From NCBI GenBank assembly GCA_001029735.1, contig CP011213.1:396613-460612 (forward strand): a stretch of DNA of 64,000 nucleotides. Reading direction: 5' to 3'. The notes beneath the pieces were generated by a model. It saw only the letters and a program-made list of their open reading frames with translations, searched no databases and was not told where the DNA came from. This document shows positions 7,254 to 48,909 of this stretch, piece after piece (positions within the stretch are counted from its first letter, which is position 1; each line of letters opens with the position of its first letter). The stretch comes from Berkelbacteria bacterium GW2011_GWE1_39_12. Its GTDB lineage: Bacteria > Patescibacteriota > UBA1384 > UBA12157. The position numbers and the translations under genes are program-made.

Positions 7254-7284
7254 AAGATTGCTTCGCTTACGCTCGCAATGACAA
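7254..7284 (+). repeat. palindromic element family A, half copy (AGATTGCTTCGCTTACGCTCGCAATGAC)
   Basis: It shares the right arm of the family-A element. Intergenic. Confidence 0.6.
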
Positions 7285-7290
7285 ACTCCT

Positions 7291-7375
7291 TTATCCCCAG
7301 TTTATTGACGCGCTGTGGATAACTAATTAATATAAGGTTAGAGTGGTTGTGGACAACTTCCCTGTGGACAACTCT
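7291..7375. promoter_or_regulatory. DnaA-box cluster upstream of dnaA
   Basis: TTATCCCCA at 7291, TGTGGATAA at 7314, TTGTGGACAA at 7347 and CTGTGGACAA at 7362. Confidence 0.6.
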
Positions 7376-7419
7376 AGACCTTTAGTAGATAGTGAGGACA
7401 GAAGTAGTTAAGGAGTGGT

Positions 7420-8811
7420 ATGAAAACCTTAGACGAGAAAGAAACTTGGCAAGCGGCGCTCGGCGAACTGGAAGTGGTTTTTTCCAAGGCTAATTATTCA
7501 ACTTGGTTTAAAGACACTTTCGTTTTAGAAATCGCTGAAGATGAGATTACGGTCGGCGTACCAAATGCCTTCACTAAAGAATGGTTGGAAAATAAATACC
7601 ACCCGCAGATTTTTGAAGTCTTAAAAAAGATTCACCCCAATTTGAAAAACGCGACTTATGCCGTCGCCACTAATTCCGCCCGGCAAGCGCCTAAAATCGA
7701 TAGTGCAGACAATTCAGATATTAATCTAAAACCGACACAAAGTTATACTCCGACTCAAATCCCTGTTGCCGACAAACCTCAACCCGCTTTCAATCTTAAT
7801 GCGCATTACTCTTTTGATAATTATGTCGTCGGTAATTCAAACCGTTTAGCCATGGCCACCGCTCAAGCGGTTGCCGCCAACCCGGGCACTGCCTATAATC
7901 CCCTGTTTATTTATGGCGGCGTCGGTTTGGGTAAAACCCATTTGGTTCAAGCCATCGGTAATGAAATTATTGCTAAAAGTCCTAAGAAGAAAATTGTTTA
8001 TGTTTCCTGTGAGAAGTTTACCAATGATTTTATTGCTTCGATATCGGATAAAAAAACGAATGAATTTAAGAAGATGTATCGCGATGCCGACGTTTTAATG
8101 GTTGATGATATCCAATTTATGGCTGGAAAAGAAGGGACTCAGGAAGAATTCTTCCATACTTTCAATGCGCTTCACCAAGCCAATCGGCAAATTGTTATAA
8201 CCAGCGATCGCGTGCCGAAAGCCATCCCGCAGCTCACTGACCGCCTTTCCTCGCGTTTTGGCATGGGAATGGTCGCAGATATCCAACCGCCTAATTTAGA
8301 GATGCGTCAGGCGATTTTAAGAAACAAATGTGCAGAAAAGCAGTGCAGTTTAACCGACGACGTAATCGATTATATCGCTCAAAATATTGAATCCAATATC
8401 CGTGAACTCGAAGGCGCGATTACCAGAATTCTTACTTATTCTCAGATGAACGATGTTTTACCTTCACTCGCCATAACCACTAAGGCCTTAGAAGATATTA
8501 TTTCCAATAAAAATAAAATTATTTCTGTGGAAAAGATGTTGCAGATGACAGCTGATTTTTTCAATATCACCACTGTCGATCTTATTTCCGCTAAAAGAAA
8601 TAAAGAATTAGTGAGACCCCGCCAGATTGTAATGTATTTAATGCGCCATGAAATGAGCCTTTCTTATCCTAAAATTGGCCAACATCTAAACAAGAAAGAC
8701 CATACGACAGTTATACACGGCGTGGAAAAAATCGAAAAAGAAATTGCACGCGATGTGGAATTGCATAAAGAGCTGACGGCATTAAAAGAAAAAATGCACG
8801 CATTCAATTAA
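7420..8811 (+). CDS. dnaA: chromosomal replication initiator protein DnaA
   Basis: A 463-aa protein with Walker A GGVGLGKTHL, an AAA+ domain and C-terminal DNA-binding domain IV. RBS aaggag upstream. Confidence 0.95.
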   Translation: MKTLDEKETWQAALGELEVVFSKANYSTWFKDTFVLEIAEDEITVGVPNAFTKEWLENKYHPQIFEVLKKIHPNLKNATYAVATNSARQAPKIDSADNSDINLKPTQSYTPTQIPVADKPQPAFNLNAHYSFDNYVVGNSNRLAMATAQAVAANPGTAYNPLFIYGGVGLGKTHLVQAIGNEIIAKSPKKKIVYVSCEKFTNDFIASISDKKTNEFKKMYRDADVLMVDDIQFMAGKEGTQEEFFHTFNALHQANRQIVITSDRVPKAIPQLTDRLSSRFGMGMVADIQPPNLEMRQAILRNKCAEKQCSLTDDVIDYIAQNIESNIRELEGAITRILTYSQMNDVLPSLAITTKALEDIISNKNKIISVEKMLQMTADFFNITTVDLISAKRNKELVRPRQIVMYLMRHEMSLSYPKIGQHLNKKDHTTVIHGVEKIEKEIARDVELHKELTALKEKMHAFN

Positions 8812-9110
8812 AAACTTGAAGAAAATGGCGTAGTTGTGGATAACTTGTGGATAACTTTAGAAATTTGCGTCTCACGTGTGGATAAGTAAGTTTATAAAGT
8901 TCCAATTTTCATCAAAGACTGACTTATACACACGTTTTCCCCCTGTTTATACACAGTTTATACCCCACTTTTCCACATGCAAAACACCCGTTAATCCCCA
9001 CAATCCACAGCCCTTATTATTACTGCCTTTTTTCTTCTTTAAGAATTATTAATATATAAGTGTGGATAAGTCCGGATAAATATTGAGCAAATAACAAAGA
9101 AAGGAATTAG
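8812..9110. other. oriC candidate: DnaA-box cluster plus AT-rich unwinding element between dnaA and dnaN
   Basis: Perfect TGTGGATAA boxes at 8835, 8846, 8877 and 9061. TTATACACA at 8925 and 8947, plus degenerate boxes at 8958, 8970 and 9002. AT-rich stretch at 9020-9060. Confidence 0.75.
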
Positions 9111-10217
9111 ATGATAGTTTCATGTACACAAGAGAATTTAGCTAAAGGATTAGGTTTAGTTGGACGATCAGTCGGAACGAGAACGACTTTACCGGTTTTA
9201 AATAATATTTTAATCAAAACAGAAAAAGGCCGGCTTAAACTTTCAGCCACAGACTTGGAAATTGGGATTCATACGTGGGTTGGCGCCAAGGTTGATGAAG
9301 AAGGAGCTCTGACAATTCCGGCCAAACTTCTATTGGATTATATTAATACCAATAATGATAAGACAATCGATTTTTCTGCCAAAGATTTAACTTTGCATTT
9401 AAAGTCGGAGCATTATAAGGCAAACATTAAAGGTATAGATGCGGCTGAATTCCCTCTTATTCCTGAAGTTAAGAAAGCGGAAAGCTTGGAAATTCCGGTA
9501 GCCAGCTTTTTAAACGCCATCACAAAAACTCTAATTTCGACGGCTTTAGATGAAAGTCGCCCGGTACTTGCCGGAGTCTTCTTTAAGGCCAAAGGTAACA
9601 CACTGAAAATGGTTGCGACTGATTCTTATCGCCTTTCAGAGCAAACAGTTATTTTAAATAAGAAGATTGATAATGAAGTTGTATTTATTGTGCCACAAAA
9701 AACTTTGGCTGAAGTTGGTAGAATTCTATCCAATGCCGGTGAAGTAGTTATAGTTTCTGCCGGGGAAAACCAGGTTGAGTTTAAATTAGGCGAAACAATT
9801 CTAGTTTCACGTTTAATCGAAGGTACTTTCCCTGATTATGAACAAATTATTCCAAAAACAGTGAAGACAACTGTAGTTGTGAAAGCCTCATTATTTTCTA
9901 ATGCGATTAAAATGGCGTCATTATTTGCCAGAGAATCTGCCAACAACATCAAGTTAAAAATTGAAGCACCAGACAAAGTTTCCGTTTTAGCTGTCTCCCC
10001 TCATTTGGGTGATAATACTTCAGAAATAACCGGTCAAGTTAGTGGCGAAGGAATTGAAATAGCATTCAATGCTAAATTTTTAAGCGATGTTTTAGCGGTG
10101 ATAAATTCGGAAAACGTTAAGTTGGAACTATCGTCAAACTTAGCAGCTGGATTGATTAAGGCTGAAAAAGACAATAACTTTCTCTATGTGATCATGCCGT
10201 TAAGAGTTGATGAATAA
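9111..10217 (+). CDS. dnaN: DNA polymerase III beta sliding clamp
   Basis: A 368-aa three-domain clamp in the conserved position after dnaA. Confidence 0.9.
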   Translation: MIVSCTQENLAKGLGLVGRSVGTRTTLPVLNNILIKTEKGRLKLSATDLEIGIHTWVGAKVDEEGALTIPAKLLLDYINTNNDKTIDFSAKDLTLHLKSEHYKANIKGIDAAEFPLIPEVKKAESLEIPVASFLNAITKTLISTALDESRPVLAGVFFKAKGNTLKMVATDSYRLSEQTVILNKKIDNEVVFIVPQKTLAEVGRILSNAGEVVIVSAGENQVEFKLGETILVSRLIEGTFPDYEQIIPKTVKTTVVVKASLFSNAIKMASLFARESANNIKLKIEAPDKVSVLAVSPHLGDNTSEITGQVSGEGIEIAFNAKFLSDVLAVINSENVKLELSSNLAAGLIKAEKDNNFLYVIMPLRVDE

Positions 10218-10240
10218 GAAAAATACTAAAATAATTACTA

Positions 10241-10320
10241 GTCATTGCGAGTGCAACGAAGCAATCTTGGAAACAATAGATTACCGCGCCTTTCAGACAC
10301 TTATCCACGGACGCAATGAC
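10241..10320 (-). repeat. palindromic element family A, full copy, intergenic, reverse orientation
   Basis: GTCATTGCGAGtgcaacgaagcaatcttgg...cacttatccacggaCGCAATGAC with terminal inverted repeats. It contains a DnaA-box-like TTATCCACG. Confidence 0.65.
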
Positions 10321-10349
10321 ATTAGTAATATTTTTCGACTAATATTTTT

Positions 10350-11420
10350 ATGAAAATTACCTCTCTTAAACTCGAAAACTTTCGTTCTTGGCCAGAATAT
10401 CATTTAGATCTTACTGATATTACTATTTTAATTGGTAAAAATGGCGTTGGTAAAACTAATGTCTTGGAGAGTCTATGGTTTTTAAGTAGTTCACGTTCTT
10501 GGCGGACTCGAGAAGAAATAGAATTGGTGAATTGGGGTAAAGAATATACCAGAATATCAGCCAAGATTGAGGTCGAAAATACACCTCATGATTTGGAACT
10601 ATTTTTTTCTAAAGGTTCACCTAATGTAAAGCCGGGCAAGCAACTAAAAATAGACGGTGTTAAAAAACGCCTGATTGAAATTGTCGGCGGCTTGCCTTCA
10701 GTCTTGTTTAGCCCAGAGACAATCGATTTGGTTTCCGGCGCGCCTGGCGCGAGAAGAAAATTCTTAGATATTCTCCTTTCGCAAACCGACAGACACTACG
10801 TCTTGGACTTAATAGAGTACGGCAAGGTTACCAAAGAGAGAAATAAGTTATTATTGCGGTTGAAAATGAAACGGGCGAAGCCCGATGAATTGGATTTTTG
10901 GGACAAAAAATTAGTTGAACTAGGCACCAGAATAATTAAACAAAGGTTAGAAGCAATTAAGTTTTTTAATAAGTATTTGAGTGAAACTTATCATAAGATT
11001 GCTAATAGCGACGAAGAATTAAAAATAAAATATCACCCGTCGGTTGACGAGGATCGCTTTATGGATATATTGGTCGCCGGTCGTGAAAGAGATATAGAAC
11101 AGAGCGCCACCAATTACGGGCCGCATCGAGATGACTTTGGCGTTTATTTGGGCGGGCGTAATATCGCCTCTTTCGGTTCACGCGGTGAATATAGATCAGT
11201 GGTTTTATCTTTAAAGATTTTAGAGCTCAAGTTTTTAGAAGAAAAAAGGGGTGAAAAACCCATTTTATTATTAGATGATATTTTTTCCGAACTCGATTCT
11301 GAACGCCGGATGCATTTAGCAAAGATTGTTCAGGATCAACAGACGATTATAACGACAACAGATATCGATCATATCGAAAAATCTTTGCGGACTAAGGCCA
11401 AGATTGTGGATATAAAGTAA
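10350..11420 (+). CDS. recF: DNA replication and repair protein RecF
   Basis: A 356-aa protein with Walker A GKNGVGKTN and the SMC-like signature LSGGE-like region (GGRNIASFGSRGE). Conserved position after dnaN. Confidence 0.9.
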   Translation: MKITSLKLENFRSWPEYHLDLTDITILIGKNGVGKTNVLESLWFLSSSRSWRTREEIELVNWGKEYTRISAKIEVENTPHDLELFFSKGSPNVKPGKQLKIDGVKKRLIEIVGGLPSVLFSPETIDLVSGAPGARRKFLDILLSQTDRHYVLDLIEYGKVTKERNKLLLRLKMKRAKPDELDFWDKKLVELGTRIIKQRLEAIKFFNKYLSETYHKIANSDEELKIKYHPSVDEDRFMDILVAGRERDIEQSATNYGPHRDDFGVYLGGRNIASFGSRGEYRSVVLSLKILELKFLEEKRGEKPILLLDDIFSELDSERRMHLAKIVQDQQTIITTTDIDHIEKSLRTKAKIVDIK

Positions 11421-11459
11421 ACAAAAAACCTGAAAGAATAAATCTCTCAGGTAATACGC

Positions 11460-11963
11460 TTAGCCGCTTTTTGCGGATTTATCGTCGAATATAAACATCT
11501 GACAACTTGGGTAATCAGATTTGTTTTCGATGGGAATTTCCGTGATGGAGCAGATTACTCTCTCTATTTCATCTTCGTTATCTATCTCCAGTTTGCCCAA
11601 GGTGATATCCTGAACCACTGGCCATCGATTGGTAAACAAAAGGCCGAGTTTGTCAGGGTTTTCTTCGGTGTGAGCGAGAAACTTGTGAACGCAGAAAACG
11701 TCGATAAGTTGCATAATTCGGTCGTCATCTTCGTAAGGACAAGTGCGGATATAGACCGTCTTAAGCAAACCGCTATCTCGCAGTTGTTTTAGATAAAAAG
11801 GATTTTTTCTCCAGCGACGAAAATGACGACTCTTGTGCGTGTCGCGATCGACCAGCTCTATTTGGAATGTCTTGTTTGTATCTGATTCATCAATACGTGG
11901 AGCAAAAAAGAAACACCCGATCTTTCTAAGCCAGCAAAACATCTTCAAATCCCCCTCCCTCAA
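11460..11963 (-). CDS. hypothetical protein (island gene)
   Basis: A 167-aa ORF. The likely start is the MFCWLRK methionine. The leader contains an AATCCTAGATAGATT motif. Confidence 0.35.
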   Translation of the reverse strand: MREGDLKMFCWLRKIGCFFFAPRIDESDTNKTFQIELVDRDTHKSRHFRRWRKNPFYLKQLRDSGLLKTVYIRTCPYEDDDRIMQLIDVFCVHKFLAHTEENPDKLGLLFTNRWPVVQDITLGKLEIDNEDEIERVICSITEIPIENKSDYPSCQMFIFDDKSAKSG

Positions 11964-12134
11964 AATCTATCTAGGATTATATATTATTTTGGCTGCCTGG
12001 TCAATCATGGTTGACTTCAATTATATTTTTATTTATAATCTGCTCAATTGGTGGCAATAGCGTCACCGACTCGGAAGGCTAATGGTGGCCCCGAGATTTT
12101 GCTCTAATAGCGGAGCAGAAGGATGGTTTAACAA

Positions 12135-12707: not shown

Positions 12708-12741
12708 TGAATATCCCGCATCGAACTTTGTTGCGGGATTT

Positions 12742-13509: not shown

Positions 13510-13598
13510 AATACTCCTAAACGTCTAAATGATTCGTCGACACTTATACTATACCACTATCTTATTAACAAGTAAATAGATATATAACGTCTAAAAGA

Positions 13599-13633
13599 CT
13601 TGACATTTGGGCTCGGTTGTGATACAATATCAT
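13599..13633 (+). promoter_or_regulatory. sigma70-like promoter (TTGACA-18-TACAAT) for the small-protein array
   Basis: cttgacatttgggctcggttgtgatacaat, with a leader of about 140 nt containing the CCTGTTTAACAGG palindrome. Confidence 0.45.
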
Positions 13634-13776
13634 GTAAAGAAAATTAGTTAAACCAGTTAATCAGGTTCACCAGACAGCCGGCACCTTAACAATTTGTTCA
13701 ACCTTCTGCCTACCTGTTTAACAGGTTGGTAGAAGAGTTGGATATAAAAAACACCAGTTAAAGGAGAATAAATCAG

Positions 13777-14139: not shown

Positions 14140-14258
14140 ATCTTTATGATCTTTCGCCCGCCGCTTTTATGGCGTCGGGCGCTTCCTTCTGGATATCTAT
14201 CTAGGTATTCAGAAGAGTTGAAAAAACATTTCACTTTCAGAAAAGGAGAAAAATTCAG

Positions 14259-14618
14259 ATGATGAACGCTGTTGAAATGCAAATTGGTGAAAAGAAATAT
14301 GCGGTCGTTTGGTTCCCCGATGAGAAGATCGAGAACTTCTTGGCTGCCGATGTACGTCTTACCGCAGAAGGTTTCGATCCCGAACAGCGGGTCGGAGAAG
14401 ACGAAGTGGATGACGATATCCTTGAATCAGAGTCGTTTTGGGAACATAGCAGCGAGATTCCAGACGTTGTTTCAGCCAGCAAAACTGAAGAATTCTGTGG
14501 TTTTGAATTCGTGCACGGAGTAGCGCTTCATTGCTTCCCATATTTGGAATCATTTAGGACTTTCAGTCCGTCCGAAATTTACGATAAGGCGGAAATTTGT
14601 TACATTGTCCGGTTCTAG
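14259..14618 (+). CDS. small protein family member 2
   Basis: A 119-aa ORF containing YAVVWFPDEKIENF..RLTAEGFD. It is preceded by the conserved leader CGGGCGCTTCCTTCTGGATATCTATCTAGGTATTCAGAAGAGTTGAAAAAA. Confidence 0.5.
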   Translation: MMNAVEMQIGEKKYAVVWFPDEKIENFLAADVRLTAEGFDPEQRVGEDEVDDDILESESFWEHSSEIPDVVSASKTEEFCGFEFVHGVALHCFPYLESFRTFSPSEIYDKAEICYIVRF

Positions 14619-14726: not shown

Positions 14727-15071
14727 ATGGAGATGATAAAGCTTAACGATCAGTACGCGGTAGTCTGGTTCCCTAGAGAGTCATTCTACACACTCAAGTG
14801 TGTTGTAGTACGCCTGACTGCTGAAGGCCTTGGGCTAGAACAACTTACAGCTGTACCAGATTTGAATATCCTTAGGTCGTATTCTGACGACATTTGGCAG
14901 AAGTACCAGAAAGGCGAAGCTCCGGCTTCAATTTTCGCCACTACTATGCAAGGTAAAAAACGCCCCTATTGCACACCCTTTGTAAATGTTCACCCACAAC
15001 GTCGCAGGGTAAATACAAACTGGCTGACGATGCGCTTCAATGATTGCTGCGGCTTTCTTGTCCGGCTTTAA
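14727..15071 (+). CDS. small protein family member 3
   Basis: A 114-aa ORF containing YAVVWFPRESF..RLTAEGLG...GFLVRL. The same leader is repeated at 14650-14700. Confidence 0.5.
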   Translation: MEMIKLNDQYAVVWFPRESFYTLKCVVVRLTAEGLGLEQLTAVPDLNILRSYSDDIWQKYQKGEAPASIFATTMQGKKRPYCTPFVNVHPQRRRVNTNWLTMRFNDCCGFLVRL

Positions 15072-16321: not shown

Positions 16322-16378
16322 AAAGTCGAAAGTTCATAAAGTCGAAAGTCGAAAGTCGAAAGTCGAAAGTCGAAAGTC
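16322..16378. repeat. tandem heptamer repeat (GTCGAAA)x5 with flanking AAAGTC motifs
   Basis: aaagtcgaaagttcataaagtcgaaagtcgaaagtcgaaagtcgaaagtcgaaagtc. Confidence 0.8.
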
Positions 16379-16762: not shown

Positions 16763-16809
16763 TTGCTCTTTATGACTTTATAGACTTGATGGACTTTATA
16801 AACTTTGTC

Positions 16810-25080: not shown

Positions 25081-25212
25081 CAAGGTCGCATACGTCCGCC
25101 CAGGCTCTGTGACTTGATTGACTTCGACTATCTTGTCGGTGATGTTTTTTGCGGGCAATTTTGAGGTGCAAGAGGGCTTTTTTCGGCCCAAGGCCGACCA
25201 GCCTAGGGCTGG
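25081..25212 (+). repeat. GC-rich structured element copy 2 (inverted relative to 845..960)
   Basis: It starts AAGGTCGCATACGTCCGCCCAGG and ends TTTTCGGCCCAAGGCCGACCAGCCTAGGGCTGGC. Both termini align to copy 1. Confidence 0.5.
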
Positions 25213-25641
25213 CTAACGATGCTTTCTTTGTCTATTAGCTATCTTTAAGTGTAACAATGCCTTCTCCAGAGCTGCAGAGGCTTCCGCAACTTCTATATCA
25301 TCTTCGGCGTTTTCGAGTTTTTGCTTGGCTTTATTCTTCGCTTCTTCAGCGGCAATTTCGTCAATACGCTCGGAACGAACGGCGCTATCGGACAGCACTT
25401 TAACCACATCGTTATTAATTTCCACAAAACCACCCATTGAAGCCAGGTGAATTTCTTCCGATTCGCCCTTTTCCGCCAGTTGGCGGATTATTATTTCGCC
25501 GGGCGAAAGAATTGTAACCAGCGGTTCATGTCCGGCCAAAATGCCAATTTCCCCATTTAAAGTCGGTAACAAAACTTCGTGAGCTTTGCCCTCATAAATG
25601 GTTTCTTCTGGAGTGATTAATTTAAAGTCAAATAGTTTCAT
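25213..25641 (-). CDS. atpC: F0F1 ATP synthase subunit epsilon
   Basis: MKLFDFKLITPEETIYEG... is a typical epsilon N-terminus. The ORF track's start at 25656 lies inside a palindromic element. Confidence 0.8.
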   Translation of the reverse strand: MKLFDFKLITPEETIYEGKAHEVLLPTLNGEIGILAGHEPLVTILSPGEIIIRQLAEKGESEEIHLASMGGFVEINNDVVKVLSDSAVRSERIDEIAAEEAKNKAKQKLENAEDDIEVAEASAALEKALLHLKIANRQRKHR

Positions 25642-25651
25642 AATGTAAATT

Positions 25652-25717
25652 GTCATTCCGGACTTGATCCGGAATCTATTCTAGATCCTGAATCCTGCAA
25701 TGGCCGGTTCAGGATGA
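25652..25717. repeat. palindromic element family B (GTCATTCCGGA...TCCGGAATCTAT...TTCAGGATGAC)
   Basis: A 66-bp element in the atpD-atpC intergenic region. Confidence 0.6.
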
Positions 25718-25728
25718 CATTGTAAATG

Positions 25729-28006
<2,278 letters not shown>

Positions 28007-28035
28007 TTGTATCTTTCTGTAATTATAACTCTTTT

Positions 28036-28103
28036 GTCTTTCCGGACCGGTTGGTAAACAGGATCCGGAATCTATCATATGGATCCTGAATCATGTTCAG
28101 GAC
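28036..28103. repeat. palindromic element family B copy, between a duplicated atpG 5' end and the real atpG start
   Basis: gtctttccggaccggttggtaaacaggatccggaatctatcatatggatcctgaatcatgttcaggac. A second MPNTKEI-coding segment lies at 28098-28118 (minus). Confidence 0.55.
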
Positions 28104-28140
28104 TTCGATTTCTTTTGTATTTGGCATTGATTTTCTTGGT

Positions 28141-28209
28141 GTCATCCCGAGCTTGCCGAGGGATCTAGATTCGAGATTCCTCCACTCGCTATTGCTCGGT
28201 CGGAATGAC
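28141..28209. repeat. palindromic element (GTCATCCCGAG...CGGAATGAC)
   Basis: A 69-bp element with terminal inverted repeats in the atpA-atpG intergenic region. Confidence 0.55.
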
Positions 28210-28281
28210 ATTTACTCTTGACTACTTGGTTGACTTGTGATAACATTTATTCGAATTTGGATATCAAGCAGGAGGAAGAAA

Positions 28282-28539
28282 ATGATAGTTGTTCTGAATA
28301 TTGTGAAGTATCTTTCGTTCTTGATCACAGGGCTTTGTGCAATAGCGGGCGTAATGTTTATTGCAACTGCGCCACTCACTCTTGGTGTGTCAGTTCATAT
28401 AGCTAACATTGCCAAGGCCATTTGCATTATCTTTGTCTCTTCGCTGGCTCTGGCTTTCCTCTCAAGCAATCTGATTGACTGGTTACAGAGAAGATATCGG
28501 ATGAACAACGGCCAGATTCAAATTATGGTTCAACGCTAG
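28282..28539 (+). CDS. hypothetical small membrane protein embedded antisense within the atp operon
   Basis: An 85-aa ORF with two predicted TM helices and RBS aggaggaagaaaATG. It is flanked by palindromic elements. Confidence 0.3.
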   Translation: MIVVLNIVKYLSFLITGLCAIAGVMFIATAPLTLGVSVHIANIAKAICIIFVSSLALAFLSSNLIDWLQRRYRMNNGQIQIMVQR

Positions 28540-28597
28540 GATTCATTAGCGCTTGAAGTTTCTACTTCCGGCGCTTTTTTAAATTGCCAAAACTTTT

Positions 28598-28674
28598 GTC
28601 ATTCCGGAAAGAAAGGGTTTCTTATCCGGAATCTATTGGATCCCGGATACTGTTTGCTAACCGGTCCGGGATGA
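28598..28674. repeat. palindromic element family B copy
   Basis: gtcattccggaaagaaagggtttcttatccggaatctattggatcccggatactgtttgctaaccggtccgggatgac. Confidence 0.6.
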
Positions 28675-28677
28675 CAG

Positions 28678-30207
28678 CTATGCTTTGTCTATTCCCTTGG
28701 TATTTTCTTTTAAAAACGCTGTCAACTTCTCTTCACACTTTTCATCAATTACTCCTGAATCAGAAATACTTTTTAAAACATCGGCGATTTCGCCCTTGGC
28801 TTTAGTCGATAAAGTCTTTTCTAAAGCGCTGATTTCGGAAACTTCATAACTATCAAAATATCCATTCGTAACGGCATATAAAGTAATAACCTGTTCGGCA
28901 ACTGGAATCGGTTGGTTGTTCACTTGTTTTAAGACTTCGGTAATTCTGCGGCCTCGTTCTATCTGGCGCTTAGTATCTGCATCCAAATCAGATGAAAACT
29001 GAGCAAAAGCTTCCAGTTCTCTGAACTGTGCCATTTCCAACTTCAATTTACCGGCAATCTTTTTCATGGCTTTGATCTGAGCGGCGCCGCCGACACGGGA
29101 AACGGAAAGGCCGGCGTTTAAAGCAGGGCGAATACCTTTGTAAAACAAATCGTTCTCTAAAAATATCTGACCATCGGTAATAGAAATAACGTTGGTTGGA
29201 ATATAAGCGGAAATGTCCCCTGCCTGGGTTTCAATAATCGGAAGAGCGGTAAGTGAACCGCCGCCATTCTCTTTATTTAATTTGGCTGCGCGTTCTAATA
29301 GGCGAGAGTGTAAATAGAAAATATCGCCTGGGTAAGCTTCGCGGCCTGGCGGGCGACGGAGCAGCAAAGAAATCTGTCTATAAGCCCATGCATGCTTACT
29401 TAAATCATCGTAAACGATCAATGCGTCCCGACCATTGTCGCGGAAAAATTCGCCCAAACTAGCGCCCGCGTAGGGTGCCAAATAGGCAAATGAGGCTGGA
29501 TCGGAAGCGCCGGCTAAAACGACAATTGAGTTATCCATCGCTCCAGTTTCTTCAAGTGTATTGATTAATTTAGCGACCTTAGATTCTTTCTGACCGATGG
29601 CAACATAAATGCTAATGACTGGATCTTTGCCTTCTTCTTTGGCAATTTTGGTTTGATTAATAATCGCATCGATAGCAATCGATGTCTTTCCCGTGCCACG
29701 GTCGCCAATAATGAGTTCTCTTTGGCCACGGCCAATTGGCACAATGGAATCGATGGCTTTAATACCAGTTTGCAAAGGCGTATTGACGCCTTCTCGGGTA
29801 ATAACGCCGGGGGCAATCTTTTCAATTGGCGCCATAAGATCAGTTTTTATCTCACCCTTACCATCGAGTGGTTGGCCTAAAGGATTTACCACGCGACCGA
29901 TCATGGCTTCACCGACTGGGATTTCCAAAATCTTACCAGTAGATTTAACTGTTGAACCGGCAATGATTTTTTCAGTTTCGCCTAGTACAATAGCGCCGAC
30001 AGTGTCGCGCTCAAGGTTTAAGATCACACCGAAGACGTCTGTTCCTTCGAACTCAATCATTTCCATGGACTTGGCTTGGCTTAGACCATAGATTTTGGCC
30101 ACACCGTCGCCGATTTCAGTGACAACGCCGGTTTGTTCCAAACTCTGCTCATCGGAAAGATTTTCGATTTTCTTTTTGATTTCTTCTAAAATTAAGTCGG
30201 TATTCAT
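28678..30207 (-). CDS. atpA: F0F1 ATP synthase subunit alpha
   Basis: Walker [12 protein letters not shown] and a conserved alpha subunit sequence. Confidence 0.95.
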
Positions 30208-30321
30208 TTTACTCCTAGTTTATAAAGTCAAAAGTCCTTAAAGTCTGTAAAGTACATGGAAACTTTTGATAGTAAAACACCTCGTACTTTAAAAACTTTA
30301 TAGACTTTATGACTATTTAAG

Positions 30322-30819
30322 CTAACTTACTAATTTTTTAAGCTTTGATTGGAAGCTATTATCGTAACTTAACCCGTCGATCTCGACAATGACTCCTCCC
30401 AGAAGTTCTGGGGAAACTCGGCTTTCCAAAACTACCGGGACGGACATTTTAATTTCTAAATCATTTTCTAAGTTTTCAATCTCTTCGTTTGATAGAGCGC
30501 TACTAGAAGTAACTAATCCGCTCAAAGCCGTTTTTTCATCACGTAGAATTTTTTTAAATTCGTTAACAATTTTGCTGAAATTTTTCAATCCGTTTTCTTC
30601 AGTTAGAAAAATTAAAAAATTTAATGTATTTTTGTTAAAATTTTCAGAAAAAAGTTCATTTACGATTGTCTTCTTCTTATCGATAGATAGTTTCGGATTA
30701 AACATCATCTTTTTAAATGAGTTTAAGGCGAAAACTTTTTCCAGCATCATCAACTCGATTAATCCATCCTTGGATTTCTCGGTGTAAGAATCGGCTAATT
30801 GTTTTGGTGTGTATGACAT
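30322..30819 (-). CDS. atpH: F0F1 ATP synthase subunit delta (OSCP)
   Basis: A 165-aa protein with the C-terminal LLGGVIVEIDG motif, in operon position. Confidence 0.75.
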   Translation of the reverse strand: MSYTPKQLADSYTEKSKDGLIELMMLEKVFALNSFKKMMFNPKLSIDKKKTIVNELFSENFNKNTLNFLIFLTEENGLKNFSKIVNEFKKILRDEKTALSGLVTSSSALSNEEIENLENDLEIKMSVPVVLESRVSPELLGGVIVEIDGLSYDNSFQSKLKKLVS

Positions 30820-30830
30820 AATTTGGTTTT

Positions 30831-30903
30831 GTCATCGCGAGGAGTGAAAACGACGCGGCGATCCTTCAAGATTGCTTCGCTCGTTTCATTTGCTCGCAAT
30901 GAC
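30831..30903 (+). repeat. palindromic element family A, full copy, atpF-atpH intergenic
   Basis: gtcatcgcgaggagtgaaaacgacgcggcgatccttcaagattgcttcgctcgtttcatttgctcgcaatgac. A further half-like copy ends at 30985 (ttcgctcaggatgac). Confidence 0.65.
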
Positions 30904-30999
30904 GCTCTAAAATTTCTTCGATGCTTATCTAAAGCATCTTTTTGCATTTTCAAAGATCTTCGACTTCGCTCAGGATGACACTCACAACTTTATGTCTTA

Positions 31000-31491
31000 C
31001 TACTTTTTCTCATATTCGCTAGTAGCTTCTTCTAATGCCGATTTTTGCATCTCTGGCGATACTTTTTCTTTCAAAATCTTTTCTGTGGCCAAACCAACTA
31101 AACCGATAATATCTTTTTGCAAAGCTTCTTTGGCGGCTTCCTTTTCTTGATTAATGGCAATTTTAGCTTTAGCAATTTCTTTTTCTGCTTGACTCTTGGC
31201 CAAAGTGACAATTTCTTCTTTTTGCAAAGTGGCAGCCTTGTTTCCTTCTTCAATAATCTTAGCTGATTTTTCTTCAGCTTGATTGATTATTTCTGTTACC
31301 CGTTTTTCCGTACTGGCTAAATTTTCTTCAATCTTCTTGGCATTTTCTAAACTTTCCGCAATTTTCTTGCGGCGTTCTTCCAGCATGTTGACCAAGGGCT
31401 TATAAGCAAATTTGGTCAAAATAAAAAGAAGAATCAAAAAATTGATAATTTGGCCGATAAAAAGTTTTAAATCGATACCTAATGCTTCCAC
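31000..31491 (-). CDS. atpF: F0F1 ATP synthase subunit b
   Basis: An N-terminal TM helix followed by a long charged helix. Confidence 0.8.
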   Translation of the reverse strand: MEALGIDLKLFIGQIINFLILLFILTKFAYKPLVNMLEERRKKIAESLENAKKIEENLASTEKRVTEIINQAEEKSAKIIEEGNKAATLQKEEIVTLAKSQAEKEIAKAKIAINQEKEAAKEALQKDIIGLVGLATEKILKEKVSPEMQKSALEEATSEYEKK

Positions 31492-32610: not shown

Positions 32611-32861
32611 AAGATATTCAAAAGTCCATAAAGTTAAAGGCGAAAAGTTTAGAAAAGAAAAAATAAAAGGCTGATTTGACAGTCTTTTTAATTTTCCAGC
32701 CCAAATATATCACAACTGAAAAAAAGATCAACCCTACCATTTTTTTGTGCACGGTTAGAATAGTCGTAAAGTTCATAAAGTCATAAAGTTATAAAGTCGG
32801 AAGCCCCCAGGAAAAAATCTTGCCTTACAGACTTTAAAGACTTGATAGACTTTAGACTAAT

Positions 32862-33415: not shown

Positions 33416-34378
33416 TTATCGAGTTCTTTTAACACGAATCAGGCCGCCAAGAGGGATTATCTTTATACCTTTTTTCTCAATCTCGTCAAGAAAAAGGTTA
33501 AGACCAAGAGAATCAGAGGAAATATGGCCTGCGATCACAACATTCAAGTGATTTTTACTGGCTTCATCGCGGCTTTCGTCTTTAATATGCATTCCAATAA
33601 TTGTGCCGATGCCAGCTTTCACAAGTTCAGGGTAAACCTCTTTGCTGCCTGAAGTACCGCCTGTGATCTCGCTTGCGACAATTCGACCAGTGTGGTTTTC
33701 TGGAGAACCGGCGAAAATCATTGGGCCGGCATTATTTTTTGTTGCTTCTTTGTATTCAGGAATAGTCTTAAGGAGATCAATCAATTCTCCGACTGTGTCT
33801 GGATTTTTTTTATTCACCAAGTCTTGAAGAAACTGAAAAACCAGATTGTCGCATGGTGTGTGAAGATTCATGTAAGCAATGTCGGCAAACCTTGCAGCAT
33901 CAACTGGTCTCATGTGGTTAACTGGAGAGAGGGATCGACCGACTTGTTGAATGCGATCTCTCATCACGCCTTCAGCGACGTTGATTGGGACACCGTATGA
34001 CGCCATCATTTCAGCTTGCATGTGCATTACTTCATCGAGAGCGGCAAGCGCCTTGCCGACAGGATGGTGGGTGATAATTAAATCGATATCTGAGTTCATA
34101 GCGGCGATTAAGGCGATTTCGGCTTCTTCGACATCGATACCGACCGCTATTGTTTTTACCTTTTGCTTCTCCTTATTAAAATGAATTCTACTATCGGCAT
34201 AAGGATTGGTTAATCGTTCAGTGTCAAAAAGAGCCTTGTCTCCGCCAGCTGGCGTATTTGACAATTTTTCGTATTTTTTCTTTTCCCCATCAAGCCATCT
34301 TTTAACACCAGCTTTGCCTCGAGGGTCTGCATTGATACCTGTTTTTATTGCTAAATCGTATATTTCTTTTATTGACAT
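33416..34378 (-). CDS. Nif3-like dinuclear metal centre protein (YqfO/YbgI family)
   Basis: A 320-aa protein with the ITHHP motif and a C-terminal GHISSD-type metal-binding segment. Confidence 0.45.
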   Translation of the reverse strand: MSIKEIYDLAIKTGINADPRGKAGVKRWLDGEKKKYEKLSNTPAGGDKALFDTERLTNPYADSRIHFNKEKQKVKTIAVGIDVEEAEIALIAAMNSDIDLIITHHPVGKALAALDEVMHMQAEMMASYGVPINVAEGVMRDRIQQVGRSLSPVNHMRPVDAARFADIAYMNLHTPCDNLVFQFLQDLVNKKNPDTVGELIDLLKTIPEYKEATKNNAGPMIFAGSPENHTGRIVASEITGGTSGSKEVYPELVKAGIGTIIGMHIKDESRDEASKNHLNVVIAGHISSDSLGLNLFLDEIEKKGIKIIPLGGLIRVKRTR

Positions 34379-44573: not shown

Positions 44574-44998
44574 TCATCGCCACTACTGTCACCGTCGGTC
44601 GTATCTGCTACTGGAGGAGTAGGTGTAGGGGTAGGTGTAGCTCTGGTTGGGTCTGAATCAGTTATTGGCATAGTGGGACATGCACGGCTAGGATCTCCTT
44701 CTTTACACAAACCAAGAGCAGGGTAAAGAACTTTACCGATTACCCAGCCAATCATTGTGGCTTCCCAGTCAATAATCGTACATTGCATGTTGCAAATGGC
44801 GTTCCTGATGTTGTCGTCAACTTTCCACCACCAAGTGCCTCCAGGGCATTTGTCTTTACAGATATCAGTTACCTCTCCTGCTTGGGCTTTGGCGATTTTA
44901 GGGGTTTGTAGAACAGTGCCAAAAAAAGTAACAAAAAAGAAAGAAAGTACCAAAATAAAGGAAGTGGCGGTTCTAACTTTTTTTGAGTGCATATTCAT
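44567..44998 (-). CDS. small Cys-rich exported/membrane protein with Pro-Thr-rich tail (possible pilin-like T4SS component)
   Basis: A 143-aa protein with a signal peptide, 6 Cys, one TM helix and a PTPTPTPP tail. First gene of cluster 2. Confidence 0.3.
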   Translation of the reverse strand: MNMHSKKVRTATSFILVLSFFFVTFFGTVLQTPKIAKAQAGEVTDICKDKCPGGTWWWKVDDNIRNAICNMQCTIIDWEATMIGWVIGKVLYPALGLCKEGDPSRACPTMPITDSDPTRATPTPTPTPPVADTTDGDSSGDEW

Positions 44999-45127
44999 TA
45001 AGAAGCCCTCCTTTAATTGGCTTTTCTTTATATTTCGGAATAATGAAATTCAGCGATTTGCAATAAGCAAATCTATATTTCGGATTACGGAAATCAGCTA
45101 AGTAAATTTATTGTATCATCAAACAAT

Positions 45128-47323
45128 TCATTTTGGCCAATGTGCGGTGATCAATTGTTCTTCGTTGACTAACCCATTTTCTTTCAAATTTTGCCAAATT
45201 TTCTCGGTCACAAAAGGCATGAATGGGTGAAGCAGTTTAAGAGTAGTCTTTAAAGTGTAAAGTAAAATGTATAAAGTATTTTCTTTCAACTCTGGCGTAT
45301 CAACTTGGTTTTTACTTGCTTCTATATAAATGTCTGCAAAATCGTGCCAAACAAAATCGTATAAGTCATGGGCGGCTTGGCCAAAGCGAAAGTTATCCAA
45401 ATTTTCATCTGTCGACTTAATCACTTCATTTAATCGAGATAATATCTGCTTATCTGCTTCGGTTTTTGGCGCTAACTTGTCATTGCGAGAAGCCGAAGGC
45501 GACGCGGCAATCCAGTCATTATTAGAGATTGCTTCGCTGTTGCTCGCAATGACCATGTTATCTATTTGCATCATGGTGAACCGGGCAATATTCCAAACTT
45601 TATTGGCAAATTTTTGAGCGGCTAAAATAGCTGCTTCATCAAATTTCAGATCTTGAGTCCCAGTATTGATGTACATTAGACCAAATCGGGTAGCATCTGC
45701 TCCATATTTGTCGATCAAAAGTAGAGGATCAACCCCTGTGCCGAGCGATTTACTCATACGCTTACCTTCTTTATTGAAGACGGTTGGATGAATATAGACT
45801 TGAGAAAATGGTTTTTCTTTCATTAGCTCTAATCCGGAGAAAATCATTCGAACAACCCAAAGCATATTAATATCTCGAGCGGTACTTAAAATGGTGGTAG
45901 GATAGAAATAGGAAAGATCGTTTAATTTGTCATCGCAAGATTGCTTCGCCTGTTGGCTCGCAATGACATCCTTTGAGGCGCCGCCCAGAGGGCTCTGCCC
46001 GGCGGGCCAACCCAGAGTGGCAAAAGGCCACAAGGCAGATGAAAACCAAGTATCCAAAACATCTGTCTCGCCTTCGATTGGAATAGTGTGCCCCCACCAA
46101 ATTTGTCGGGAAATGCACCAGTCACGAATATTATCCATCCAGTCGATATATACTTTTTTCCATCGATCAGGAGTAATTTTTATCTCATCATTTTTGATCG
46201 CTTCGAGGGCCGGCTTGATCAATTCCGACATTTTTAAGAACCATTGCTTTGATGGTTGAGGCTCGATCTCTCTGTTACAACGATAGCAAACACTTAAATT
46301 GTTGGTGATATCTTCTTCTTTTTCCAGTAAGTTTTCTTCTTTTAGCCATTCAACTATTTTTTCCCTTGCCTCTTTGGCTTTTAACCCTTCATATTGGCCG
46401 GCCTCTTTGGTCATTTTCCCATATTGATTGATAACTTTAACTATATCTAAGCCATTTTTTTCGGCCATTTCATAATCAACCAGTGAGTGGGCAGGAGTTA
46501 CTCCAACGGCGCCGGTACCAAAAGTCATGTCAACATTTCGGTCGCCGATAACTCTTATCTCTCGTTTTACACCAGCAAAGTTAACTGTGAAAGTTTTATC
46601 AATGTATTCTGCATATCTTTTGTCTTTTGGATTCACAGCTACACCAGTATCACCCAGTTTAGTTTCTGGTCTGGTAGTGGCAATCGAGATCGGAAAATCA
46701 TTATCATATTTAAAGTAATACAGCTTGGCGGGTTGTTCTATATATTCAACTTCAATATCGGAAAGGGAAGTTTGGCAGCGCACGCACCAGTTAATAACGC
46801 GTTCGCCTTGGTAGATCCAGCCTTTGTCGTAATAATGTTTAAAAGCGGTTTTAACGGCTTCGGTATAACCTTCGTCCATAGTGAAACGTTGTCTTGACCA
46901 GTCACACGAACAGCCCATTTTTTTAAGCTGATCGATAATAATATGGCCTTTTTCGTCAACCCATTGCCATATTTCTTTTTCAAATTCTTCCCGTCCAAGT
47001 TCTTGGCGGGTTTTACCTTCTTTGGCTAACTTTTTTTCCACCACGTTTTGAGTGGCAATACCAGCATGATCGGTCCCAGGAATCCAAAGGGTGGGAATTT
47101 GCTTCATTCGAGCACGACGGATTAAAATATCTTGAATCGTATTATTGAGCGCATGACCCATATGAAGAGAACCAGTCACATTTGGTGGTGGAATGCATAT
47201 AACAAAAGGGACGACAGAAACGTCAGAGGCAATAGGTTTAAAGGCACCAGACTTTTCCCATAACGAATATATATCCGCTTCGGTTTCTTTCGGATTGTAT
47301 GATTTGGCTAATTCTTCTTGCAT
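45128..47323 (-). CDS. valS: valine--tRNA ligase (short form) with two in-frame palindromic-element insertions
   Basis: HIGH-type motif PPNVTGSLHMGHA and KMSKS. 731 aa. Confidence 0.9.
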   Translation of the reverse strand: MQEELAKSYNPKETEADIYSLWEKSGAFKPIASDVSVVPFVICIPPPNVTGSLHMGHALNNTIQDILIRRARMKQIPTLWIPGTDHAGIATQNVVEKKLAKEGKTRQELGREEFEKEIWQWVDEKGHIIIDQLKKMGCSCDWSRQRFTMDEGYTEAVKTAFKHYYDKGWIYQGERVINWCVRCQTSLSDIEVEYIEQPAKLYYFKYDNDFPISIATTRPETKLGDTGVAVNPKDKRYAEYIDKTFTVNFAGVKREIRVIGDRNVDMTFGTGAVGVTPAHSLVDYEMAEKNGLDIVKVINQYGKMTKEAGQYEGLKAKEAREKIVEWLKEENLLEKEEDITNNLSVCYRCNREIEPQPSKQWFLKMSELIKPALEAIKNDEIKITPDRWKKVYIDWMDNIRDWCISRQIWWGHTIPIEGETDVLDTWFSSALWPFATLGWPAGQSPLGGASKDVIASQQAKQSCDDKLNDLSYFYPTTILSTARDINMLWVVRMIFSGLELMKEKPFSQVYIHPTVFNKEGKRMSKSLGTGVDPLLLIDKYGADATRFGLMYINTGTQDLKFDEAAILAAQKFANKVWNIARFTMMQIDNMVIASNSEAISNNDWIAASPSASRNDKLAPKTEADKQILSRLNEVIKSTDENLDNFRFGQAAHDLYDFVWHDFADIYIEASKNQVDTPELKENTLYILLYTLKTTLKLLHPFMPFVTEKIWQNLKENGLVNEEQLITAHWPK
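45479..45553 (+). repeat. palindromic element family A, full copy, inside valS in frame
   Basis: gtcattgcgagaagccgaaggcgacgcggcaatccagtcattattagagattgcttcgctgttgctcgcaatgac. It encodes VIASNSEAISNNDWIAASPSASRND. Confidence 0.75.
45929..45967 (+). repeat. palindromic element family A, short copy, inside valS in frame
   Basis: gtcatcgcaagattgcttcgcctgttggctcgcaatgac. It encodes VIASQQAKQSCDD. Confidence 0.7.
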
Positions 47324-47466
47324 AATTTTAACTTCACAATTTATCGCTTAAAATTTCCGCGCAAATCTCTGATTTGCTATAAGATTATTTTATCAGAACT
47401 CTAACTGCTTGACAATGTGACTTTTAACTTGGTAAAATTTGCTCGTCTGAGAAAGGGGGAAGTCTT

Positions 47467-47742
47467 GTGTGTAGAAAAATCGTTCGTAATGACTTCGAAT
47501 CTATCTTTGTCCGGTTATTGAAGGACGGCGATGCTGACATTATCATTTCCCAGCATTTCGATCGGCAAACAGATTTTTATTGGTGTCATATAACCTTTCG
47601 GTTGGAAAATGATGCTGAAGAAATCGAAAAGCAAACCAGTTGGAAAGTTTCAGAAAAACGCGGCGAATTTTCTTGCCTCTTTGCCGAACTAAGCGAAGAT
47701 GATATTCGCCGTAAGCTCAACGAGATTGGTTACAATTCATGA
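47467..47742 (+). CDS. hypothetical small protein
   Basis: A 91-aa ORF with promoter TTGACAatgtgacttttaacttggTAAAAT, RBS aaagggggaag and a terminator hairpin at 47750-47790. Confidence 0.3.
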   Translation: MCRKIVRNDFESIFVRLLKDGDADIIISQHFDRQTDFYWCHITFRLENDAEEIEKQTSWKVSEKRGEFSCLFAELSEDDIRRKLNEIGYNS

Positions 47743-47835
47743 AAGAACTATCGACTCCTCGGATTTCCTAGGAGTTTTTTATAAGGCAGATCTTGCCAGT
47801 AAGGCTAAAATCGAGCAAGACATAGTAAACAGAAA

Positions 47836-48909
47836 CTACAGCTTTAAGTTCGAATCGGCATTGATATTTTCGAATGTCGTATATTTTGACTTGTCCATAT
47901 AAGCGGCGGCAAGGCCGACCATGGCGGCATTGTCGGTACTCAAAACAATCGGGGGGACATGAAAACTGACTTTTTCGTCATCGTGAGGCCAAAGGCCGTG
48001 GCGATCTATTGACGGATTGAGAGATTGCTTCGCCGAAGCTCGCAATGACATTACGGCTTTTTGCATCTGTTCCCTTAACTCTTTGTTAGCGGAAACTCCG
48101 CCACAGAGGCAAATCGATTTTGGTTGGTATTCATATGCTGCCCTAATAGTTTTGTTAATCAAAATATCAACTACAGTTTGTTGAAAAGAAGCGGCGATAT
48201 CTTTTTTATTTTTCTCAGAAAGCTCACCCATTTTTTTAGTTTCATTTAATACGGCAGTTTTGAGCCCTGAAAAACTAAAGTTATAATCTTTTCGGTCGGT
48301 CATCGCTCGAGGAAAATTAAAGGCTTTCGGATCGCCTTCTTCGGCCGCTTTTGATATAGCCGGTCCGCCCGGGTAGCCTAACCCTAATAAATTTGATATT
48401 TTATCGAACGCCTCGCCCGCGGCATCATCTAAAGTTTCGCCAAGAGGTTTGATCTTATCGTAATCCTCCATTAAGACTAGACCGGTATGTCCGCCAGAAA
48501 CGATTAAAAAGAGAGCGGGGAATTGGGGGTGTGGCTCTTCTGCCCAGTTTGAGTAAATATGTCCGAGCCAGTGGTTAATGCCAATAATAGGTTTATTTCT
48601 GGCAAAGGCGTAAGTTTTGGCAAAGTTAACACCAACAAGAAGGGATCCAATCAGACCGGGGCCAACTGTGACAGCAACTAAATCCGGATCAATGCCATTT
48701 AGTGCCTCCTCCACGACAGGTATAATCTTTTCGGCATGAGCTCTTGAAGCTTTCTCTGGAAAAACACCACCAAATTCCTTATGAATGTCGATTTGTGAAG
48801 CAATTACATTCGATAAAATACGGATACCGTTTTCTCCGCCCGCTGGCGGATTTTCAATGACCGATGCGGCTGTTTCATCGCAGCTGGATTCTATGGCTAA
48901 AATATACAT
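47836..48909 (-). CDS. tsaD: tRNA N6-adenosine threonylcarbamoyltransferase TsaD (with in-frame element-derived insertion)
   Basis: N-terminus MYILAIESSCDETAASV and HxxGH motif GHIYSNW. 357 aa. Confidence 0.9.
   Translation of the reverse strand: MYILAIESSCDETAASVIENPPAGGENGIRILSNVIASQIDIHKEFGGVFPEKASRAHAEKIIPVVEEALNGIDPDLVAVTVGPGLIGSLLVGVNFAKTYAFARNKPIIGINHWLGHIYSNWAEEPHPQFPALFLIVSGGHTGLVLMEDYDKIKPLGETLDDAAGEAFDKISNLLGLGYPGGPAISKAAEEGDPKAFNFPRAMTDRKDYNFSFSGLKTAVLNETKKMGELSEKNKKDIAASFQQTVVDILINKTIRAAYEYQPKSICLCGGVSANKELREQMQKAVMSLRASAKQSLNPSIDRHGLWPHDDEKVSFHVPPIVLSTDNAAMVGLAAAYMDKSKYTTFENINADSNLKL
48020..48049 (+). repeat. palindromic element family A, half copy, inside tsaD in frame
   Basis: gagattgcttcgccgaagctcgcaatgac. 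It encodes MSLRASAKQSLN in an inserted loop near the TsaD C-terminus. Confidence 0.65.

Follow-up and report, generated by a model that had tools for sequence, protein, structure and literature searches.

Hairpin repeats that sit inside protein-coding genes and leave the reading frame open have been catalogued among the CGTC-tagged repetitive extragenic palindromes (REPs), in which a CGTC or TGTC tag (CCTC is allowed) is followed by a stem starting A-T, A-T and by a short tail (Di Nocera et al. 2013, PMC3733652). Their families, CGTC-1 to CGTC-4, occur in five phyla, mostly as head-to-head dimers; in-frame intragenic singles and dimers encode 7 to 30 amino acids (20 to 30 for dimers), some of them in tRNA synthetases, and Neisseria dRS3 and the Rickettsia palindromic elements (RPEs) RPE-4 (CGTC-4) and RPE-6 (CGTC-1) are members of the same superfamily (PMC3733652). 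A nuclease that acts on such repeats is known from Neisseria, where SsnA, a 94-aa single-domain GIY-YIG protein, binds the NTS repeat CGTCATTCCCGCGMAVGCGGGAATCYRG and cuts just upstream of it, on single-stranded DNA (ssDNA) only and on one strand only (Chenal et al. 2025, PMC11893778). Across phyla, 71% of ssnA homologues have flanking Ssn-related motifs (SRMs), and the SRM-gene-SRM layout was likened to an insertion sequence; site-specific ssDNA cleavage at the hairpin has been published for the Neisseria and Wolbachia homologues, and NTS copies are rarely intragenic (2% in Neisseria meningitidis 8013) (PMC11893778). Here, we analyze a dispersed hairpin repeat, family A, in a 64-kb stretch (the window) of the 915-kb genome of a groundwater bacterium, Berkelbacteria bacterium GW2011_GWE1_39_12, which belongs to the Candidate Phyla Radiation (CPR); copies lie in intergenic spacers and in frame within atpG, valS, and tsaD. 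We think it likely that family A belongs to the widespread CGTC-tagged REP/SRM superfamily, that its doublets are nuclease-dependent, non-autonomous derivatives, and that the intragenic copies are survivors in tolerant loops.

A preliminary description of the window had listed seven related palindromic elements, and the motif is present at all seven positions. The 11-mer GTCATTGCGAG, with up to one mismatch, matched 10 times against 0.82 expected, a count reached by none of 100 shuffled sequences. The companion motif AGATTGCTTCGC matched exactly at six of the reported positions and with a single mismatch at 10256; when two mismatches were allowed, the window was no richer in it than the shuffles. 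The copies form one family: a covariance model built from 22 units of other genomes, then run on the window, recovered 11 units at E < 0.01, which make up seven elements, and gave no convincing match outside family A.

Head-to-head doublets predominate among these elements. On the minus strand, a 72-nt inverted doublet with motif matches lies in frame in atpG at 27365-27436 (model E values, 1.4e-07 and 5.2e-07), and a 75-nt inverted doublet lies in frame in valS at 45479-45553 (2.8e-09 and 3.4e-06). The second valS copy, at 45929-45967, is an internally deleted element of 39 nt that retains one unit and a stub of the second, its last 9 nt (6.2e-06). The tsaD copy, at 47977-48049, is a decayed inverted doublet of 73 nt whose second unit (GATCGCCACGGCCTTTGGCCTCACGATGAC) has diverged (4.9e-06 and 0.0019). 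The remaining minus-strand copy is a single unit at 7254-7282, ~140 nt upstream of dnaA (1.3e-05). The atpF/atpH spacer holds a 73-nt doublet at 30831-30903 (1.3e-06 and 3.4e-05), and the dnaN/recF spacer holds an 80-nt doublet at 10241-10320 with a degenerate second unit (3.3e-05 and 0.42). The coordinates first reported were accurate, while the description of some copies needed amendment: the tsaD element had been read as a 30-nt half, the copy at 10241 is a doublet as well, and the one at 45929 is internally deleted. The intragenic copies in atpG and valS measure 72, 75, and 39 nt, compared with 73, 80, and 29 nt between genes. At 12 unit starts in the window, the tag is TGTC seven times, CGTC three times, and AGTC and GGTC once each.

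A family-A unit is ~26 to 37 nt long and starts with a pyrimidine and GTC (the Y-GTC tag). Its 5-bp outer stem, P1 (ATTGC/GCAAT), encloses a conserved internal loop, with GA on the 5' side and GAA, GTG, or GCG on the 3' side; inside this loop are a closing G-C pair and a covarying inner hairpin, variable in sequence and length. The unit ends with C and a short tail (T/C-N). Usually, a unit, a spacer of 3 to 60 nt, and a reverse-complement unit form a head-to-head doublet of 70 to 110 nt. In other genomes, the tag is mostly CGTC or TGTC; among the matches listed, 31 exact doublets were found in 138 occurrences, and many more had a degenerate mate.

The hairpin is supported both by covariation and by predicted DNA folding. 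The inner hairpin changes in sequence from copy to copy with its pairing preserved, and the first unit of the 30831-30903 doublet has a compensated stem, ATCGC/GCGAT. We compared 143 distinct units from 80 loci that had been picked by protein similarity, not by motif. P1 was paired in 99% of them, and inner P2 pairs covaried (GC 82, AU 14, and CG 9; CG 94 and UA 8), although these pairing counts favor structure, since the alignment was fitted to the covariance model. None of 500 shuffles reached the observed score, and slid controls dropped to about 20% pairing. Intact doublets were predicted to form long DNA hairpins (z about -4.3 to -5.5), with z values of -5.0 and -5.5 for the atpG copy and -4.25 for the 45479-45553 copy in valS; the value was -2.3 for the 30831-30903 copy, and the tsaD copy no longer gave a stable hairpin (-0.41). 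By this modeling, a family-A doublet can fold as one long hairpin or cruciform in ssDNA. A hammerhead-like reading of the GUC...GAG-helix-CGAA arrangement was ruled out by inspection, there being no CUGAUGA core.

A covarying hairpin could also be a structured RNA element, such as a terminator, an mRNA stabilizer, or a processing site, that is kept for a function in the transcript. The crowding of copies in the atp operon spacers would fit this explanation, and many CGTC REPs lie just 3' of ORFs (open reading frames), where action at the RNA level was proposed (PMC3733652). However, no Rfam family matched the window, 12 motif-rich loci, or, in a permissive search, the atpG copy; copies occur in both orientations and also within coding sequence; Ssn does not bind RNA (PMC11893778); and the tsaD copy has been kept in frame despite its lost fold. 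We hold a transcript-level role to be an unlikely explanation for the family, albeit one that would be compatible with nuclease-dependent doublets as far as the intergenic copies are concerned.

Four copies had been described as read through in frame, one in AtpG, two in ValRS, and one in TsaD; translation reproduced the quoted peptides exactly, with no stops. Intact intragenic doublets are open in four of the six reading frames. The added segments are insertions, as had been claimed: they are missing from solved orthologues and from most close relatives of all three proteins. In AtpG (ATP synthase gamma, 302 aa; gene at 27098-28006, minus strand), the doublet encodes a 24-aa peptide, residues 191 to 214, without stop codons. 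In the best solved orthologue, an 18-residue gap lies opposite it, and five relatives with 64 to 74% identity have the short loop PFQPDEGATCKTDRANFKFEP at the insert site. The window protein, its closest relative (P0002, 89% identity), and a further relative (P0007) each carry a different copy in this loop, at slightly shifted positions and in different reading frames, giving the peptides VIASEAKQS..., CHCEQS...DRHVVNTPRDD, and RHSEMVTEES..., respectively. Comparison at the DNA level, for which the DNA of another relative (P0006) provided the empty site, distinguished three distinct elements. The insert maps to a loop of low confidence, in agreement with the placement suggested initially: in the AlphaFold model of AtpG (mean predicted local distance difference test score [pLDDT], 84.5), the sole segment with a pLDDT below 50 is residues 191 to 216. 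Alignments to chloroplast gamma chains break at query residue ~188, the same point as the insert, and this loop is apparently where the chloroplast protein carries an extra insert of its own.

The AtpG in the database is 326 aa long and begins 24 codons upstream of the conserved MPNTKEIR (28006). The true start is probably at MPNTKEIR, and the 24-codon extension (MIDSGSCLPTGPERQKS..., 28007-28078), read from a decayed repeat copy, is probably not translated. Repeats of this type can create false N-terminal extensions, such as that of the 326-aa AtpG, and spurious small ORFs in annotation.

ValRS, a 731-aa valyl-tRNA synthetase of the short CPR form (45128-47323, minus strand), carries two inserts on a base length of about 680 aa among 120 relatives, most of which lack them. 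The 45479-45553 doublet encodes VIASNSEAISNNDWIAASPSASRND (residues ~593 to 617), and the 45929-45967 copy encodes VIASQQAKQSCDD in the linker between LGWP and DLxxFYP; the alignment with Thermus thermophilus ValRS has gaps at both segments. In relatives without an insert, the linker is 4 aa long. Three others (P0123, P0195, and P0197) have full family-A doublets there, and three more (P0141, P0165, and P0178) have other CGTC-type copies (SHPEQSEGS...ILRSTQND); the second insert site shows the same pattern of insertion among relatives. As in AtpG, the inserts fall into low-confidence loops of the model, where pLDDT is below 50 at residues 434 to 476 and 594 to 615, covering both.

A small imperfect palindrome, CCCAGAGGGCTCTGCCC, at 45968-46000 adjoins the short valS copy and adds GQSPLGGAS to the same ValRS linker. 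CPR ValRS proteins (relatives P0123 to P0209) range from 679 to 805 aa, save three with a long N-terminal extension (about 960 to 1,040 aa), and this variation is due to a few loops that hold many low-complexity, lineage-specific inserts (...SKIKNQN..., ...LEIRNSDLEIYVG..., and ISNFQFPISK). Judged from these sequences, the inserts suggest that several further repeat families have colonized coding sequence.

TsaD (tRNA t6A transferase; 47836-48909, minus strand) gives a picture of an older insertion. Its doublet encodes (V)MSLRASAKQSLNPSIDRHGLWPHDD without stop codons, an excess of ~22 aa over Thermotoga maritima TsaD, and the loop is 59 aa long; of 136 relatives, 94 have a loop of 36 to 38 aa. 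The relative closest to the window protein (P0241, 71% identity) shares AVMSLRASAKQS and lacks the second unit. In another lineage (P0248), several family-A units occupy the same loop. Spacers also differ by whole elements between close relatives. In the genome of the closest relative, the atpH/atpA spacer contains a doublet with no counterpart in the window, and the atpA-atpG spacer measures 56 nt, versus 670 nt, crowded with elements, in the window.

The in-frame state alone would be consistent with the segments being native protein sequence or artefacts of assembly. Against this stand the DNA-level identity between copies in unrelated genes and the absence of the segments from orthologues. 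Moreover, AtpG, ValRS, and TsaD have been recorded in exactly this form, with the inserts, from three to six contigs of several independent sources, with two NCBI accessions per protein (AKM82295/HBO60886, AKM82297/HBO60888, and AKM82278/HBO60869, respectively, in the order listed). Since identical insert-bearing proteins appear in independent assemblies, the inserts are not artefacts of a single one, and we give this explanation practically no weight.

Family A had been presented as a lineage-specific selfish repeat. A scan of one genome per species for the pattern GTCATTGCGAG-N8-20-GCAATC found it, with the same 17 conserved bases, in at least 120 loci from many phyla; the family is thus not lineage specific. 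Among the listed matches are isolates (Bradyrhizobium, Sphingomonas, Pedobacter, Hymenobacter, Mucilaginibacter, and Helicobacter rodentium) and metagenome-assembled genomes from Chloroflexota, Nitrospirota, Planctomycetota, Oscillospiraceae, Cyanobacteria, Zixibacteria, Armatimonadota, and Patescibacteria. Clustering of the ORFs in 120 motif-bearing loci yielded mostly unrelated housekeeping families and no recurrent transposase; the sole nuclease family that clustered was a small GIY-YIG protein of ~96 aa. In two loci (L081 and L066), its ORF lies exactly in the spacer between two inverted family-A units.

As this protein was present in just three loci of the clustering, we carried out the reverse test from the protein side, using 80 metagenome loci retrieved solely by GIY-YIG protein similarity. 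The linkage of family A to the small GIY-YIG gene in other genomes is near-obligatory: the 11-mer, with up to two mismatches, occurred within 200 nt of the ORF in 78 of 80 loci, where our own calculation gives about 9 by chance, and on both sides of it in 66. The covariance model made 279 matches with E < 0.001 in the 182 kb of these loci. An inverted pair encloses the ORF in 29 of the 80, and in 21 it is situated between two doublets. The encoded protein is 96 to 99 aa long with a single Pfam domain, GIY-YIG (E 6e-18), and its nearest solved relative is the UPF0213 protein BH0048 (E 1.8e-06). Small ORFs found between family-A doublets in the closest relative of the window (L121) were considered as candidates for a partner and are not GIY-YIG genes.

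These results bear on two conventional routes of mobilization. REPIN-like doublets made of hairpin units could point to a REP/REPIN family mobilized by a REP-associated tyrosine transposase (RAYT) of the IS200/IS605-like type. However, the tag is Y-GTC rather than GTAG, the motif-bearing loci share no transposase, and the 2013 survey knew of no dedicated transposase for CGTC repeats and found no RAYT tied to them (PMC3733652), making this origin very improbable. We consider it no more credible, and if anything slightly less so, that family A is a classical miniature inverted-repeat transposable element derived from a DDE-transposase insertion sequence with terminal inverted repeats. The elements are indeed short and dispersed with inverted termini, but the window copies show no target-site duplications, single units are common, each with its own covarying internal hairpin, and the enclosed gene encodes a 96-aa GIY-YIG protein and not a transposase of a known insertion sequence family.

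We favor instead a model in which family A depends on a nuclease of the Ssn type. By analogy with SsnA, the GIY-YIG protein would bind the family-A hairpin in ssDNA and cut just upstream of the GTC tag. The short doublets would be non-autonomous miniatures of the hairpin-nuclease-hairpin unit, spreading by a nuclease-dependent single-strand mechanism and landing in spacers and genes of the Berkelbacteria genome. In essential genes, selection would retain those copies that have a whole number of codons, a stop-free frame, and a loop that tolerates the extra residues. The retained copies, translated with their hosts, would persist as disordered loop insertions of 13 to 25 aa and then slowly decay, as in tsaD, or undergo internal deletion, as in the 39-nt valS copy. 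Family A may still be active in this genome.

Several points weigh against this model. The published SRM motif, HGTCWYN(0-2)YYVSBRHN(0-5)WNVSBRGN(0-2)RNCYNB, matches neither the window nor the family-A consensus; the Neisseria NTS, used as a control, does match it. We found no family-A-associated Ssn-type gene in the window or in the few CPR loci examined. The GIY-YIG ORF at 610-838 of the window was rejected as a partner nuclease: it is frameshifted and has no family-A flank, and its homologues adjoin tRNA-Ser. No target-site duplications or excision footprints are visible at the window copies. The tsaD copy, being common to a relative at 71% identity, is old, and at least some intragenic copies are, on this evidence, fossils. 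To our knowledge, transposition driven by Ssn has never been demonstrated. The demonstrated role of Ssn in Neisseria is restriction of transforming ssDNA (PMC11893778).

There is a different explanation, in which the repeats are Ssn target sites with a function for the host, in controlling ssDNA that is incoming or exposed or as a recombination signal, that have been multiplied by recombination, gene conversion, or replication slippage rather than by nuclease-catalyzed transposition, the intragenic copies being accidental. Restriction of ssDNA is the sole role of the Ssn/NTS pair shown experimentally (PMC11893778), the lack of target-site duplications agrees with it, and different copies in the same loops could also arise by conversion between copies. 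On the other hand, 29 of the 80 loci have a hairpin-gene-hairpin layout like that of an insertion sequence, copies at many unrelated sites in very different phyla share the 17 conserved bases, and close relatives have spacers that differ by whole elements. We regard a host function as a possible but less probable origin of the repeats.

A bolder form of the nuclease-dependent model can be put forward only tentatively, and we are inclined to doubt it. Here, the doublets would be the non-autonomous form of an element of ~0.4 kb, among the smallest autonomous mobile elements, in which a 96-aa Ssn-type nuclease between bipartite hairpin ends would itself drive HUH-independent cutting and insertion of ssDNA, cross phyla, and repeatedly rewrite the same surface loops of AtpG, ValRS, and TsaD in CPR bacteria. 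If true, such an element would be a steady source of new loop sequence in streamlined CPR genomes.

Family A shares the window with other genes and repeats. The replication-origin gene set comprises dnaA (7420-8811), dnaN (9111-10217), and recF (10350-11420), and the atp operon (atpC, D, G, A, H, and F) spans 25213 to 31491. The spacers of this operon hold four doublets of a second CGTC/SRM-type family (GTCATTCCGGA...TCCGGAATC, GTCATCCTGAA..., and GTCATCCCGGA...), at 25651-25720, 28035-28100, 28141-28209, and 28597-28677. The hairpin GTCATTCCGGA-CTTGA-TCCGGAATC of this family has the simple 8- to 9-bp stem and 4- to 5-nt loop of CGTC REPs. The doublet at 28141-28209, in the atpA/atpG spacer, is a variant, GTCATCCCGAG...GGGATC / GATTCC...CGGAATGAC, whose units score E values of 0.062 and 10 with the family-A model; by its sequence, it is intermediate between family A and the ATTCC-stem family.

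The window's sole GIY-YIG ORF, at 610-838 on the minus strand, encodes a single-domain protein of ~80 aa from a different subfamily, and its frameshift lies in an A8 run. It is located directly upstream of tRNA-Ser(CGA) at 492-581 (region 492-1090) and is preceded by small GC-rich hairpins and three pieces resembling tRNA 5' halves (GGAGAGGTCGCATA...). Intact homologues lie directly upstream of tRNA-Ser in two other lineages (L205, 1501-1921, and L206, 1501-1836). There are 256 homologous proteins, and all those named among 120 listed come from Patescibacteria or an unclassified bacterium. The ORF resembles a homing-type element with a link to tRNA-Ser genes. The short GC-rich hairpins GCCAGCCCAAGGCTGG, GGGCCTCGGGCCC, and CGTCCTCGGGACG recur at 850-925 and 25180-25216 and also precede the GIY-YIG genes linked to tRNA-Ser in L205 and L206.

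Other short repeats are present as well. All five copies of the palindrome CCGCCAGCTGGCGG (flanks, CT...ATT) in the window lie within ORFs: in atpC (25473-25486), atpD (26987-27000), ORF 33416-34378 (34242-34255), tsaD (48836-48849), and ORF 49987-50922 (50185-50198). The tsaD copy contributes PPAGGEN to a protein loop that most relatives have in a form shorter by 7 aa, and ValRS of other CPR bacteria has similar peptides (NPPAGG/NPPTGG). Two pairs of near-identical direct repeats, 14176-14226/14652-14702 (96% over 51 nt) and 6310-6351/6874-6915 (90% over 42 nt), may be shared leaders or duplicated cassettes; the first pair precedes two small ORFs, 14259-14618 and 14727-15071. The motif ACTTTAAAGACTTGATAGACTTTA occurs in three spacers (16775-16798, 30286-30309, and 32831-32854), and a tandem of the related AAAGTCGAAAGTC is located at 16338-16371; both are possible promoter or terminator signals.

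CPR genomes are under 1 Mb and are usually regarded as streamlined. In-frame hairpin repeats in essential genes, known from Rickettsia and some Proteobacteria, are here extended to this group. Loops that have been struck recurrently, such as the AtpG loop and the ValRS LGWP/DL linker, are natural insertion-tolerant sites. The pairing of family A with a GIY-YIG protein offers a new hairpin-nuclease pair for ssDNA tools, and a very common stem variant that falls outside the SRM motif may explain why some Ssn homologues were reported to have no flanking motifs. Three aspects of our observations seem to be new: this stem variant, which the published search motif missed; its occurrence in CPR bacteria; and the different copies in the same AtpG, ValRS, and TsaD loops of related lineages.

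The view that family A has no described equivalent has to be abandoned, because CGTC REPs were catalogued in 2013 (PMC3733652) and SRMs and Ssn nucleases were characterized in 2025 (PMC11893778). A text search of the literature for the family-A motif or its parts returned nothing save unrelated primer sequences, and in the literature searched, REP or RPE repeats are not mentioned in any paper that refers to Patescibacteria or Berkelbacteria. CPR bacteria are not named in the text of the CGTC REP survey (PMC3733652) or mentioned in the Ssn paper (PMC11893778), and none of the family-A peptides is in the 2013 list of intragenic REPs (PMC3733652). The likeness to CGTC REPs is nevertheless extensive: both have the tag, a stem starting A-T, A-T, a short tail, head-to-head dimers, and in-frame intragenic copies, and the family-A peptide pattern VIASEAKQS...SAPRND resembles the VIPAKAGIQ...DSRLRGND pattern of CGTC REPs. 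The two differ in the stem, with CGTC REPs having 8- to 9-bp stems and 4- to 5-nt loops and family A having a bipartite hairpin (5-bp stem, internal loop, and second helix).

The resemblance to Rickettsia palindromic elements noted at the outset is real in that both insert in frame into conserved proteins, add short loop peptides, and keep the gene intact. Their hosts (Rickettsiales versus Patescibacteria) and stems are different; the link runs through the classification of RPE-4 and RPE-6 in the CGTC superfamily (PMC3733652). REPIN/RAYT systems resemble family A in having two inverted hairpin units and a spacer as the likely mobile unit and in the small nuclease gene flanked by its own repeats, with recognition thought to be ssDNA based. 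They have a GTAG tag and an HUH tyrosine transposase, in contrast to the Y-GTC tag and GIY-YIG nuclease of family A. The classic RPE-1, an element of 100 to 150 bp, is a separate, longer family. Family A has the same (C/T)GTCAT tag, hairpin, and AATC plus short tail as SRM/NTS repeats, which number hundreds of dispersed copies. Its stem combines ATTGC, a GA/GAA internal loop, and a variable second helix, as opposed to the plain ATTCCCGC stem of SRM/NTS, and both are dispersed over many phyla and flank, on one or both sides, a single-domain GIY-YIG gene encoding ~94 to 98 aa.

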